Assembly (NCBI GenBank): GCA_963663475.2
Contig: CAXXJV010000001.1
Span: 2,176,001 to 2,240,000 of the forward strand
Origin: Candidatus Cloacimonadales bacterium
GTDB taxonomy: Bacteria; Cloacimonadota; Cloacimonadia; Cloacimonadales; JAFGVF01
DNA: 64,000 nt
Reading direction: 5' to 3'
Shown here one piece after another: positions 46,468 to 51,446 of this stretch. Both the position numbers and the translations under genes were made by a program. A model generated the notes under the pieces. It was not told where the DNA came from, made no database searches, and saw only the letters and a program-made list of their open reading frames with translations. The stretch's first letter is position 1. Each line of letters begins with the position of its first letter.

Positions 46468-49431
46468 TTATTCTTTAACATAACAGATACCTCTCTTACC
46501 ATCCATTTTGATAGACAAAGGCTTGTTTGTCTTAACAAGTTTAACATACTTCTTATCTTCAATAACCTCTAGATTGTTTAGTTTATCCCAGTGGACTAAA
46601 TTATCGTCTTCAGCGAATGGTACTGAAACATAGCCAATGTTCATTGATAAAATATTATGGAAGAAGTGAGTTCCCTGAGAAGGATCAACCCTGAAGTTTT
46701 CTAGGCCAGCTTCAACAATAACCTTGGCCATTGATATATTACTAAAGGCGGTTGGAATGCCTAAGAAACGGTCTCTAGATCCCCATCGACCTGGACCAAT
46801 TAAGACATAATGTATGTTTTTGTCTAGCATCTTTTTATTAATATCATCAATTTCATTCATTATTTCAATAGTTTCTGTATTATCGAATGTTTGAGGTTTA
46901 ACATAGACTATGTGTTCTAAATCATCAATAATACCATTTCCCATTGAATAATTAGAATAAATCAAGCAGTCTTGTGGTTGGGCCTCATGTGAATCAATAA
47001 CAACATCTTCAGCGTTTATAGATAATGGTCTAATCTGAAGAATATAAAAAGTTCCTTGTTTTATCTTTTGACTATTTGCCTGAAGATTCACAGCAAATTC
47101 AATTTCAACTGGAACTCCCATTGCAACTTCACCAATAGAGAGAAGATCTTCTAAAATACTGGCAAGAGGGAATCTATTATATTTAACAATATTTTCAAAT
47201 GTTACTACTGGCATGCCTTCGCCAAACATTCCTGAAATAAAGGCCTTACTGTTATAATCCCAATAAGATACAATATCTTTTAAGGCAGATTTAATTTCAT
47301 TATCTCTGATTGATACCTTTTTGAGACAGACATCTTCCCCACTTAAAAGGTCATATGAATCATCTGTTAAATCAATTGCATAGAATTCTTTTTGGGAATT
47401 ACCAACTAAATACTCTCCAGAAATAAGTTCTTTTTTAGGAAATTTAGGACAGAATCTATAAGTGTTTTCACCTTCTACTACAGATTTTCCCATACCTACA
47501 GCAATTGTTGCAATACCATCTGAGTTCTCAAGATCTGAAGTTGGGTAAAAGTTGAAAGATTGGGCAACCCCAGAAAAATTAGGAAAATAATATTTACCAA
47601 ACTTGGAACCAGTTACTTCTTGTATTATTACAGCCATTTTCTCTTCAGCAATCATATAATTAACATTCTCTATATAATCACGTGCTTTTTTAACAAAAAT
47701 CGAAGAATAAACAAGTTTTACCGCGTTAGTAAGATCTTGATATCTTTCAATAACTTTTTTGGAATTATTAGGTAACATATAAGTTGAATAAATACCTGCA
47801 AAAGGTTGTGCCTGAGAATCTTCAAGTAAACTTGAAGACCTAACTGCAAGAGGTTTCTTTAATTCTAATATCACTTGGTAAAGTCTGTGTTCTAGTTCTT
47901 CTGATAACCTACAAGTCAAAAAGTATCTTTCAATTTCCTCATCAGATTGCTCAGTAATATCACTAGTAATATTATTTAATTCAATGAAATTATCAAACTC
48001 ATTAGTTCCAATAATGCATGTTGCAGGAACTGAAATATTGAAATCTGGATAGCTTTCATCAAACTCCATTGAATTTAGTAAAGAGTTCATAAAAGCTAGA
48101 CCTCTCCCCTTTCCTCCCAGCGATCCTTCTGCTATTTTAACAATTTGATCTTCTAAATTAAATTCAGCATTATCAAAATTAATTATCTTACCTCTAGCCC
48201 TTAAAGATCTGACTTCCTTGAAAGTATTTAGTAGAAAATCTCTTAACTCTGTGGTTGAAGAAAATTCACTAGTGCTAATTGGTCTTATTTTCTTAGCAAC
48301 AAGAAATTCACCATGAGCAATTAACCAGGAAGAAAAGTGATTTCTTCTTGAATGAAACAATAGGCTTATCTCAGGTATATCTGTTAGTATATTTTCAAAT
48401 TCCTTTAAAGTATTAGCCTTTCCATATTGGTTTCCAGCTTCATCTTTAAAAATAAAATCTCCGTAACCCAGATTTGTTTTTATAAAGTGTTTTAGCTCTT
48501 TCATGAGGTTTCTATCATGTTTTCTTATAAAAGATGCCTTATGCTTAAGAACTTGGTCTTTATACTCTTTATTAGCAGACTGCATCAAAATAGGTAGGTC
48601 TGCATTCATAGATCTTATTTCTTGTAAAAGTTTTATACCTGCACCTAGATAATCATCGTCTTGCTTTGGAAAATCAATATCTGAGATTAAACAGACGATA
48701 AACTCTTTATATTTATTATAAATATCAATAGCATCCTCATAATTGTTAGCCAAAATTACTTTTGGTCTAGCTCTCATCCGTAAGCGTTTATTCATATCAT
48801 TCATTTCAGTATCGATTAAAAGCTGAGTTTGCTTCATGATCTCAGCATAAAGCAAAGGAAGATAAGAGGAATAGAAGTTAATTGAATCCTCAACTAATAA
48901 TATTACTCTAACTAAACCAACTGTTGTATCGAAATCACAGTTCCATCTATCCTCAACATATTTGATCATAGCAAGGAAGAGCTTACTATCTCCATTCCAG
49001 TAAAATACGTTATCAATATGAACCATCTTATCAGGGAATTTTTTAATTAAGTTGATATCACCTGTATTATTTAGGAGTAAGAGGACAGGTGTCTTGGGAG
49101 AAAGATCCTTTATTGATTTTGAAAGCTCATAGGGGATTGTCTCCCCTACTCTCATCATAGTAATAACTAAATCATATTTATGAATTGAAACCTTTTTTAA
49201 AGCTTCTTCTTTAGTTGGTACTGAAGTGATTCGTGGTATAGTAGTTAGATTTAGATGCTTATACTCTCCAAAAATCTGTTCAGACAGTCTCCCATCTTGC
49301 TCAAAAATATAAGCATCGTAAAATGATGATACCATTAAGATATCTTTAACTCTCTTTTTCATTAAATAATGAAAGTTATCTTCACCAAATTTGAATTTAT
49401 TATAATGATAGTTTAACTGTTTTAAATCCAT
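46468..49431 (-). CDS. Receiver-like domains fused to PEP/pyruvate-binding (PPDK_N, ATP-grasp) domain
   Basis: YDAYIFEQDGR, ILLVEDSINFYSSYLP, GSLGGKGRGLAF, PLAVRSSSLLEDS..QPFAGIYSTY, VEIEFA, LQIRP, GPGRWGS, SQGTHFF. Confidence 0.85.
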   Translation of the reverse strand: MDLKQLNYHYNKFKFGEDNFHYLMKKRVKDILMVSSFYDAYIFEQDGRLSEQIFGEYKHLNLTTIPRITSVPTKEEALKKVSIHKYDLVITMMRVGETIPYELSKSIKDLSPKTPVLLLLNNTGDINLIKKFPDKMVHIDNVFYWNGDSKLFLAMIKYVEDRWNCDFDTTVGLVRVILLVEDSINFYSSYLPLLYAEIMKQTQLLIDTEMNDMNKRLRMRARPKVILANNYEDAIDIYNKYKEFIVCLISDIDFPKQDDDYLGAGIKLLQEIRSMNADLPILMQSANKEYKDQVLKHKASFIRKHDRNLMKELKHFIKTNLGYGDFIFKDEAGNQYGKANTLKEFENILTDIPEISLLFHSRRNHFSSWLIAHGEFLVAKKIRPISTSEFSSTTELRDFLLNTFKEVRSLRARGKIINFDNAEFNLEDQIVKIAEGSLGGKGRGLAFMNSLLNSMEFDESYPDFNISVPATCIIGTNEFDNFIELNNITSDITEQSDEEIERYFLTCRLSEELEHRLYQVILELKKPLAVRSSSLLEDSQAQPFAGIYSTYMLPNNSKKVIERYQDLTNAVKLVYSSIFVKKARDYIENVNYMIAEEKMAVIIQEVTGSKFGKYYFPNFSGVAQSFNFYPTSDLENSDGIATIAVGMGKSVVEGENTYRFCPKFPKKELISGEYLVGNSQKEFYAIDLTDDSYDLLSGEDVCLKKVSIRDNEIKSALKDIVSYWDYNSKAFISGMFGEGMPVVTFENIVKYNRFPLASILEDLLSIGEVAMGVPVEIEFAVNLQANSQKIKQGTFYILQIRPLSINAEDVVIDSHEAQPQDCLIYSNYSMGNGIIDDLEHIVYVKPQTFDNTETIEIMNEIDDINKKMLDKNIHYVLIGPGRWGSRDRFLGIPTAFSNISMAKVIVEAGLENFRVDPSQGTHFFHNILSMNIGYVSVPFAEDDNLVHWDKLNNLEVIEDKKYVKLVKTNKPLSIKMDGKRGICYVKE

Positions 49432-49460
49432 TATCCCTTCTTTCTATTATCTTTAATATA

Positions 49461-49488
49461 ATACTATAAGGTCTGAATTATTTGTCAA
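49461..49488 (-). promoter_or_regulatory. Putative sigma70 promoter of the REC-PPDK_N gene
   Basis: TTGACA-N16-TAGTAT on the minus strand. Confidence 0.5.
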
Positions 49489-50396
49489 TAGTTTTCTCTA
49501 CTAATGAGCTTTTACTACTTTTAAAAACATGTTCTATCAAGTTTCAAAATTCTAGAGAAATATATTTATTGATATCTAAATGAGTCTAACTTTCTATAAT
49601 ACAAGAATATATCTTATGCAATCCAGATAGTAATAGTAAAGAGGTTCATTTTTTTTTTGAGAATTAATTAAGAGAATTTATCTTGAACTTGATTAGATAT
49701 CTTGGAAATTGTAGTATTTTTTTATGAGAACAATGATGCTTAACTTTTCATATTTATAATCTCTCGATAGCTCTTACTTTATCAAACTATTCAATTTTTT
49801 ACTGTTATTACTCAAATTTAGATGGGTACTCAGCTAGCTTACATATCTATAAATCCATGACTAAATACTAAAAATTTTGTGAATAATGTTTACTCTTGTA
49901 AAACTTTCTTACTTATTAGACGCTAACAAAAAATACTAGAGAAATGCTTTAGTAATGCTTTATAAGTTTATTCCATGATAAAATTCCAATTGGTTAGTAA
50001 ATATCGTAACCATTTATATTTTCAAAGTAATAATTCAGTTATGTGATATCAATTAACTATTTCCAAAATGAAATTATCTAAAGCATGTTAGTAAAGCTTA
50101 GATTACGATTAAAAGTCTAACCTCTATGTAGTAGCTAATATCTGTTATATTAATAAAAATGAACTTGAATCACAATGTCCGTATATGAATCAACACAACA
50201 TATTGCTAATGTAAATAAAAAATAATTTGGTAAAATAATTTTTATGATTATTAATATAATATCTTTTGTAAAAATGATCAAACAAAAGACCCAGATGCAG
50301 AAAAATAAATAATTAATGATTTGTAAAAAATGCCTATTATTAGTGGCTTTTAAAGTTACGATAAACATTTTGATTATTACATTTTATTAATTATTA

Positions 50397-50436
50397 TTGA
50401 CATAAATGACAGCATTTCGTAATTTTGTACTGTCAT
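50397..50436 (+). promoter_or_regulatory. Promoter of the BirA-like gene overlapped by an inverted repeat (candidate operator)
   Basis: TTGACA-N17-TAATTT (50397-50425) overlapped by ATGACAG-N17-CTGTCAT (50406-50436). Confidence 0.6.
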
Positions 50437-50459
50437 CAAAAATAATGAAGGGAGAAAAG

Positions 50460-51446
50460 ATGAACAACAGAAAAACAATATTCAAATTACTTCGTGAAAG
50501 TAGTGGAAGATGGGTATCAGGTCAAGCAATTGCTGATGAACTTGAAATTAGTAGAAATGCTGTTTCCAAGCATGTTAAGCTCATGAGAGACAATGGTGTA
50601 AAAATCTTAGCTTCAACTAACAGAGGTTACAGATTCATGGATGCAGACGATAAAATCTATACATACGAAATTATTCTTAACGATAAAAAGCAACTAGTAG
50701 GTAATAAAATCTTTTTACATAAAAAATTAGATTCTACCAATGCTGAAGTTGCTCGTCAAGTTATCAAGAAAGAAATCAAAGAAGGAACTGTAGTTATTGC
50801 TGAAAACCAATCTAAAGGTAAAGCAAGAAATGATACTAACTGGATTTCAATCAAAGGTAAAGGTATTTATCTATCTATCTATCTTAACCCAAGACACGTT
50901 TTAGACAAAGTTACTTTAGTTAACCTTATCGCTGCTTATAGCTTCATTGAAGCTATTAAATCAATTACTGGTCTAGATGACTTACAATTAGCATGGCCTA
51001 ACAATATTACTTATAAAGGTAAGAAATTTGCAGGCCTTCTAACTGAAAGTTTCACAGATATTGACGGTGTTGGCAAAACTGTTATGGGCCTTGGTGCATA
51101 TATCAACTTGACTACAAAAGAGCAAGAAATTATTGCTGAAGAAGGTCTTACTTCTTTAAATGCAATCTGTGAAAAAGACTTCAATAGAAATGACATTATT
51201 TCTAAGTTCTTAAATATATTCAATGATGAATATATGAAATTCAAAAAGAAAGAAGTAGAAGAACACTTAGATCGTTGGGTTCAATATCTTGATATACTTA
51301 ATAAACACGTAAAAGTTGATATTGATGGTATCATCCATGAAGGTTATGTTAAAGGCATTACAGATAAAGGAAAACTTGTTTTCTCATCTGATGAATATGA
51401 CAAAGACCTTTATATCAGATACGGTGAATTCATAATTAGCCAATAA
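50460..51446 (+). CDS. birA: BirA-like protein (wHTH + biotin-ligase fold + C-terminal domain) with degenerate catalytic motifs
   Basis: VSGQAIADELEISRNAVSKHVK...GYR HTH; DSTN; GKARND replaces GRGRxG; AWPNN replaces KWPND; KKFAGLLTE; ATG 50460 behind GGGAG. Confidence 0.8.
   Translation: MNNRKTIFKLLRESSGRWVSGQAIADELEISRNAVSKHVKLMRDNGVKILASTNRGYRFMDADDKIYTYEIILNDKKQLVGNKIFLHKKLDSTNAEVARQVIKKEIKEGTVVIAENQSKGKARNDTNWISIKGKGIYLSIYLNPRHVLDKVTLVNLIAAYSFIEAIKSITGLDDLQLAWPNNITYKGKKFAGLLTESFTDIDGVGKTVMGLGAYINLTTKEQEIIAEEGLTSLNAICEKDFNRNDIISKFLNIFNDEYMKFKKKEVEEHLDRWVQYLDILNKHVKVDIDGIIHEGYVKGITDKGKLVFSSDEYDKDLYIRYGEFIISQ

Follow-up and report, generated by a model that had tools for sequence, protein, structure and literature searches.

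What does a BirA protein do once the residues of its adenylate side are lost? This question is raised by a gene in the window, the whole stretch of 64,000 nucleotides analysed here, which is part of the 3.3-Mb genome of a Candidatus Cloacimonadales bacterium (G000). A preliminary description had taken the gene for a BirA paralogue that lost ligase activity and became an autoregulated, possibly abundant transcription factor, which senses another ligand and recognises a new site. The gene and its parts are:

50460..51446, + strand: class II BirA paralogue of 328 aa with winged helix-turn-helix (wHTH), biotin protein ligase (BPL) catalytic fold and C-terminal beta domain, adenylate-side residues lost (domain search, AlphaFold model, alignment)
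50450..50454, + strand: its Shine-Dalgarno sequence, GGGAG
50469..50633, + strand: winged HTH, aa 4-58, recognition helix ISRNAVSKHVK, mean identity 97% among 18 same-genus sequences
50817..50843, + strand: biotin-binding loop, aa 120-128, GKARNDTNW, with equivalents of G115, R118 and W123 but none of R121
50991..51005, + strand: AWPNN (aa 178-182) in place of KWPND, the equivalents of E. coli K172 and D176 being lost in 21/21 family rows (alignment)
51024..51026, + strand: K189, the equivalent of E. coli K183, invariant
51099..51101, + strand: Y214, aligned with E. coli N208; this column is Tyr in 21/21 family rows and Asn in 63/63 outgroup rows (alignment; N208 contact from PMC10647483)
51458..51510, + strand: hairpin just 3' of the stop codon, -26 kcal/mol, z -5.5, candidate terminator or 3' stabiliser (fold prediction)

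The protein combines an HTH_11 domain (aa 4-58, E 1.5e-14) with a BPL_LplA_LipB domain, and with the wHTH joined to the BPL core and a C-terminal domain it has the architecture of class II BirA. Its AlphaFold model (pLDDT 89.7) includes the C-terminal strands at 283-327, and the closest PDB structures are the BirA proteins of S. aureus, Klebsiella and E. coli. Among the family models, the domain cut-off of TIGR00121 is passed; the score is far under the cut-offs of PRK11886 and reaches 43 vs 70 bits for TIGR00122. The well-conserved wHTH of a BirA-like protein, GKARNDT at aa 120-126 and AWPNN at aa 178-182 were all recovered as first described. An earlier start at 50406, given by the ORF finder, was rejected, since some orthologues lack an open frame across the extra stretch and the Shine-Dalgarno sequence precedes 50460, where the ATG was consequently placed. 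The gene does stand alone: one neighbour, a response-regulator/PPDK_N gene 1028 bp off, is divergent, the other, an MTS methyltransferase gene, is convergent, and the identical pair accompanies the paralogue in 7/7 same-genus loci. The divergent neighbour (46468-49431, - strand) encodes 987 aa with receiver-like domain(s) fused to PPDK_N (PEP-synthase ATP-binding) and is divergent from the paralogue throughout the genus. The hairpin overlaps the final codons at the 3' end of the methyltransferase gene, has no called U-tract, and ranges from -14 to -30 kcal/mol across seven orthologue loci.

Orthologues were found in 7/7 genomes of the genus and in the sister-genus genome G008 (39% identity). 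Among 161 genomes of the phylum, HTH-bearing BirA was found only in this family, on one short contig of G158 and as a canonical copy in G020 that is cut by the contig end. When 1.84 billion representatives were searched with a profile, three clusters belonged to the family, after which scores dropped to 204 bits. The family comprises 21 rows (20 distinct, several near-duplicates) and was compared with 63 canonical class II outgroup rows; its members group together in a single clade (support 1.0), for which no sister is supported. Eight pairs gave dN/dS values of 0.03-0.11, which indicates purifying selection, and the mean identity by region is 97% for the HTH, 74% for the catalytic domain, 59% for the biotin-binding loop and 76% for the C-terminal domain.

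The active site was then considered by its two halves. In E. coli BirA, K172 and D176 contribute to biotin binding and biotinyl-AMP formation, as the preliminary description states. According to the available part of PMC10647483, biotin is contacted by S89, T90, R118, R119 and K183, and biotinol-AMP adds R121, F124 and N208. In the family, S89, T90, K183 and G204 are retained in 21/21 rows and Q112 and W123 in 20/21. R121, K172, D176 and N208 are retained in 0/21, compared with 62, 59, 62 and 63 of the 63 outgroup rows; hence these four adenylate-side residues are 94-100% conserved in canonical proteins and changed in every family member, which as a whole has none of the intact adenylation motifs (GRGRxGR, KWPND, N208). 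The protein of the window itself has all six of the biotin contacts S89, T90, Q112, R118, W123 and K183 (R118 in 13/21 family rows), with changes at R119 (Asn) and G117. At N208, a pairwise alignment to S. aureus BPL opens a two-residue gap, which is absent from the E. coli and the multiple alignments. Judged from these alignments, the active site is split, its biotin side being largely kept and its adenylate side lost.

The proposed loss of ligase activity is thus supported by the adenylate residues, gone in 21/21 rows, yet with K183 and an intact ligase fold the protein may adenylate slowly. A regulator with slow but genuine ligase activity, which forms biotinyl-AMP at a low rate via K183 and uses it as co-repressor, would account for the retained K183, S89, T90, W123 and whole three-domain fold, and the class II copy is active in both published two-ligase systems, those of F. 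novicida and L. lactis, as far as the accessible parts of these reports go. We nevertheless regard it as quite improbable, given four adenylate-side changes shared by all 21 rows, among them the replacement of Asn by Tyr at N208. The idea that the protein senses another ligand was not supported, since the biotin-ring contacts are kept in the family. In addition, the R118 position is Arg in the six genomes that carry bio genes, whereas G001 and G005, in which no bio genes were detected, have Ile there (Fisher p 0.036, with kin that are not independent), and this retention only alongside bio genes in eight genomes ties the biotin pocket to biotin. However, some family members have a decaying pocket and loop (G117 changed in 10/21 rows, R118 in 8/21, G186 in 4/21, G206 in 2/21), and certain of them may no longer bind biotin. 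The member P0015 carries Q112L, G186D and G206R. Orthologues show the K172/D176 loss in all 21 rows under purifying selection, but the loop, the most variable part of the protein, is no fixed motif: GKARND, GKGRND, GKGINE, GKAIND, GKHKSE, GKAYDE and GKTEDE all occur.

Is another protein available for ligation? Since two proteins of G000 bear biotinyl domains with AMKM motifs (G000:C1:861617-862342 and 1451322-1453613, each with two tandem biotinyl domains and AMKM in each), a ligase is required. PF03099 matched three proteins in this genome: the BirA paralogue, a 273-aa protein that resembles lipoate ligase as judged by eye, and a 249-aa HTH-less BPL at G000:C1:2779361-2780110. The latter has GSGRRKN, KWPND and the catalytic lysine and scores above the TIGR00121 cut-off. 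Because of this canonical second ligase with intact motifs, the BirA-type protein is not the sole ligase of G000 and is rightly called a paralogue. A second BPL match was also present in 6/6 other genus genomes and in G008, the motifs having been inspected in G000. Orthologues of bioB and bioD were not found in G000, and bioA and bioF have distant homologues only; however, a bioY-ecfA-ecfT uptake operon (ecfT named from its position) is present.

Upstream of this bioY, the sequence AGTCAAA-N15-GTTGACT covers the Shine-Dalgarno sequence and ends 4 nt before the ATG. BirA boxes have a spacer of 14-16 between 7-bp arms. Scored against TGTNAAC-N15-GTTNACA, the consensus of the preliminary description, the bioY box is the sole one in 1078 upstream regions of G000 with at most three mismatches and at least 6/7 palindromic positions within the last 60 nt, although its left half sits where G000 promoters are generally G/C-enriched. 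The right half is conserved in 5/5 genus genomes with bioY, the left half is recognisable in four and degenerate in G002. In 466 orthologous upstream pairs of G000 and G003, bioY had the highest conserved N15 site (16.6 vs 9.4), a score inflated because bioY sites from further genomes of the genus were among those used to train the matrix. No wider regulon was found in these pairs, a footprinting that covered 2.0 of 3.3 Mb (61% of G003) plus the G003 bioY locus and would miss degenerate or non-palindromic motifs. Compared with the delta-proteobacterial consensus TTGTAAACC-N14/15-GGTTTACAA, the spacer is 1-2 bp shorter (PMC545781, available part).

A box of the same type was found in the sister genus. 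G008 has the orthologue, no bioY was found there, and its bioB-bioA-fab-acp-bioF-bioD operon is preceded by a perfect TGTACAC-N15-GTGTACA at the position matching the bioY box (RBS/start), a score equalled by 0/1078 regions of G000. In 12 bioY/bioB loci of other families no BirA-type box was found within 60 nt of the start, and the eleven bioY loci among other families imply that bioY can do without the paralogue. The recognition helix ISRNAVSKHVK is identical in a canonical Desulfobacterium BirA from a bioF-bioD-birA-bioA cluster (neighbours judged by eye). With this helix and with BirA-type N15 boxes at bioY and at the G008 bio operon, the claim of a new recognition site was not supported. 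At L056:4042-11030, the G008 operon reads in full bioB-bioA-fabZ/fabG-like-acp-fabF-fabZ-like-bioF-bioD behind its perfect box, bioB being detected in just 2/161 genomes of the phylum. This arrangement resembles the extended Desulfovibrio operon in the accessible part of PMC545781.

Based on sequence comparison, we consider it probable, at roughly 60%, that the paralogue is a ligase-dead biotin sensor and repressor of biotin-uptake genes. With free biotin bound, it would turn off the bioY-ecfA-ecfT operon, while biotinylation would be left to the separate HTH-less ligase. If no biotinyl-AMP is made, biotin itself would be the co-repressor, and a dimer of the paralogue would bind WGTNAAM-N15-GTTKACW and block transcription.

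How does such a protein relate to known systems? With class II BirA (E. coli, S. aureus, B. subtilis; PRK11886, TIGR00121, TIGR00122) it shares the three-domain fold, a wHTH with S32/R33 equivalents, the biotin-ring contacts and a box at biotin genes; it differs by lacking equivalents of R121, K172, D176 and N208, by the separate ligase and by the codon usage of an abundant protein. Clostridium acetobutylicum reportedly has a BirA' that senses biotin for transport genes without biotinylating, beside a working ligase, and this BirA' is said to be crippled by loss of its C-terminal domain. Unlike this BirA', the paralogue has a C-terminal domain (328 aa in total; 76% identity in this domain), and the loss lies in the adenylate half. 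Both BPL gene types are carried by C. acetobutylicum (PMC8449670, available part). In Francisella novicida a class I BplA biotinylates and a class II BirA represses the bio genes; according to the accessible text of this report, that BirA still forms biotinyl-AMP and biotinylates slowly, which the Cloacimonadales paralogue is predicted not to do (PMC4462617). Lactococcus lactis, with BirA1 and BirA2, shares auxotrophy, two BPLs and, upstream of bioY, a box with arms ending AGT...ACT, which its own HTH copy binds, but both of its BPLs are described as active ligases in the part of PMC4861984 available, unlike the predicted ligase-dead paralogue. Regulation apart from ligation is also found with BioR (GntR) and BioQ (TetR), which accompany class I BPL; these have unrelated folds and, as far as the accessible part of PMC5640590 goes, no known ligand, whereas the paralogue descends from the ligase itself. 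The paralogue probably belongs to the two-BPL division of labour between BirA and BplA, as a variant of the scheme. In a literature search that covered few subscription papers, neither this Cloacimonadota family nor a full-length BirA with a dead adenylate side was described. General background came from the available parts of PMC4016012 and PMC11089781.

Codon usage fits less well to a repressor of one operon. The richness in C-ending codons seen by eye was borne out by counting: C-ending codons make up a fraction of 0.45 of the F, N, Y and I codons, whereas the genome median is 0.24, which puts the gene at the 99th percentile of 2177, and the CAI lies at the 94th percentile. Usage resembles that of ribosomal proteins, with rank 10/2177 in a score trained on 30 ORFs of translation-gene clusters (ORFs called in the analysis itself), and among the local genes scored the paralogue was highest in 6/7 orthologue loci. 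The suggestion of a possibly abundant protein therefore stands as far as codons are concerned. E. coli BirA is present at <10 molecules per cell and dimerises with a KD of 0.9 mM with biotin alone vs 1-10 uM with biotinyl-AMP (PMC5640590, available part). Since a one-operon repressor should likewise be rare, the ribosomal-protein-like codon usage is a misfit. One might speculate that a high protein amount offsets weak biotin-only dimerisation, or that it serves a second job.

The same codon bias could point to an abundant biotin store or buffer in an auxotroph, where repression is minor, or to a heterodimer partner that reads biotinyl-AMP or signals from the class I ligase. BirA' and BplA of C. 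acetobutylicum are said to interact, and the biotin-synthesis genes missed in G000 would suit an auxotroph. However, the most conserved part of the protein is the HTH and not the pocket, and a store would not survive the loss of R118 and of pocket glycines; we hold either version to be very improbable.

Another indication of expression, and the question of autoregulation, lead to the region upstream of the gene:

50208..50257, + strand: conserved blocks AATGTAA (50208) and GATTATTAATAT (50246), candidate distal promoter
50397..50402, + strand: TTGACA, -35-like, invariant in 8/8 orthologue loci, with a weak -10 partner
50406..50436, no strand: inverted repeat ATGACAG-N17-CTGTCAT, partly conserved, candidate DNA site or leader RNA stem

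In 4/4 runs of two studies, RNA-library contigs extend over most or much of the gene (X1, 50282-51422 in one piece; X2, 50322-51422 in three pieces), and none lie on the 600 bp upstream flank or on the convergent methyltransferase gene, the latter being part of the query as well. Such contigs give neither strand, start nor level, and library DNA is possible. If they are transcripts, the promoter lies upstream of 50282, where the conserved blocks are, and the palindrome is inside the leader. Of the near-consensus promoter first described, only one half is consensus: a perfect TTGACA stands at 50397, followed at 17 bp by a weak -10, TAATTT (3/6), and the pair is absent from the promoter scan list. 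Over 50208-50362 the blocks AATGTAA, GATTATTAATAT, TGTAAAAAATRCC and TTACGAT are kept in 6-7 genomes and form a candidate second promoter with factor sites.

The palindrome exists as reported and is the sole exact copy in 3.3 Mb. Its right arm GTCAT is conserved in 8/8 orthologue loci and its left arm ATGAC in 5/8; it was not seen upstream of the G008 orthologue, and its arms are oriented opposite to those of a BirA box, so it is not BirA-shaped. Since perfect inverted repeats with 7-bp arms and at least three G/C occur in 49/963 upstream regions, the palindrome by itself is modest evidence. A matrix scan of the genome revealed no regulon, its own site scoring 26.6 and the next one 17.7 in coding DNA, and among the 466 G000/G003 upstream pairs none was conserved at <4 mismatches. 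A dyad scan of G000 likewise found no enriched N15 or N17 dyad of the BirA-box or palindrome kind, though it recovered TTAGC-N17-GCTAA at six sites. Read as an RNA stem, the arms pair in 49/56 cells, four changes being of the G-U type and two being double; four substitutions retain G-U on the + strand vs two suiting the other strand. Covariation was not beyond that of shuffles (45-323 of 500), the fold z was -0.8, and Rfam gave no noteworthy match. The palindrome may be an operator, an RNA stem or a promoter element, and the proposed autoregulation is possible. Among the intergenic dyads of G000 the strongest are TTAGC-N17-GCTAA, which we take to be CIRCE-type, at six sites and TAGCA-N15-TGCTA at seven.

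These results also bear on the preliminary view of a repurposed regulator, taken here more broadly as an abundant DNA-binding protein whose main job is independent of biotin, with another ligand or none, which regulates its own promoter or numerous weak sites and for which the bioY box is a remnant or side target. The codon rank and the local top scores, the RNA-library contigs on the gene but not on the methyltransferase gene, the several conserved upstream blocks, a near-invariant HTH beside a decaying pocket as in P0015, and retention of the gene in G001 and G005 are all consistent with it. Yet the palindrome has no second copy in G000 or conserved counterpart among the 466 pairs, no dyad of its kind is enriched, the pocket changes are scattered and do not amount to one new pocket, a canonical BirA has the same recognition helix, and contig depth does not rank expression. 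Such a complete change of function is consequently unlikely.

The two genomes just named are instructive as well. Neither bioY nor bioB was found in the drafts of G001 and G005 (350 and 230 contigs), while the HTH remains constrained, with dN/dS vs G000 of 0.014 and 0.026. Beside the usual bioY neighbour, G001 has repeats and a transposase-like ORF, and the G005 contig ends about 460 bp past that neighbour. Counts of exact-pattern BirA boxes in G001, G005, G002, G008 and G020 were at control level, with no clear target in G001 and G005. High abundance that offsets weak dimerisation would still give no account of this retention without bioY, and the persistence of the gene in these two drafts makes a second, biotin-independent role possible. 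An extended reading, which we consider doubtful though worth stating, combines an abundant pseudo-ligase transcription factor that reads free biotin without the ATP step, its adenine pocket filled by a conserved Tyr, with a gained biotin-independent DNA-binding role. This second role would keep the HTH invariant where the biotin pocket and the regulon are lost.

Textbook BirA needs biotinyl-AMP synthesis to repress. If the paralogue is the ligase-dead biotin sensor favoured here, a natural full-length BirA with the biotin half only makes it testable whether biotin alone drives dimerisation and operator binding, and an ATP-independent, non-biotinylating biotin switch would be a possible use. 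The family also gives a graded series with a fixed HTH, from the canonical outgroup via G008, where GRGRR is kept, and the genus, where the loop erodes, to P0015 with its broken pocket: a clean case of an enzyme turning regulator. Should the codon and RNA hints of abundance be true, a second function would be at hand in a little-studied phylum, and under the doubtful two-role reading an enzyme would have been caught in two stages toward a pure regulator.

Some further sites were noticed along the way. At the operon of a biotin-dependent decarboxylase, AGTAAA-N8-TTTACA is invariant in 8/8 genomes with the regulator; it was set aside as a BirA target, as it looks like back-to-back -35 hexamers, its parts are rearranged in G007 and G009, and it also occurs before unrelated genes. 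TAGAAAC-N15-GTTGACA at the same operon was not conserved and was rejected too. The general form WGTNAA-N8-TTNACW, in which a -35 hexamer is preceded at 8 bp by its inverted copy, is found at G000:C1:859253 and about 20 more intergenic sites (21 vs about 10 at other spacings) and is invariant at the decarboxylase operon in eight genomes; we read it as back-to-back promoters, with a factor site as a possible alternative. In G020, AGTTAAC-N15-GTTGACA precedes a gene for an EamA/TIGR00950-like transporter (L093:344-1296; below the cut-off), in the genome whose canonical BirA is cut by the contig end. This transporter presumably resembles the biotin transporter YigM/BioP, and no close homologue was found in five genomes (best E 3e-8). 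Finally, a repeated palindromic element is inserted upstream of the bioY promoter in G000 (L040:2240-2620; G000:C1:380160-380540), and G001 has dozens of similar copies, one of which adjoins a transposase-like ORF.
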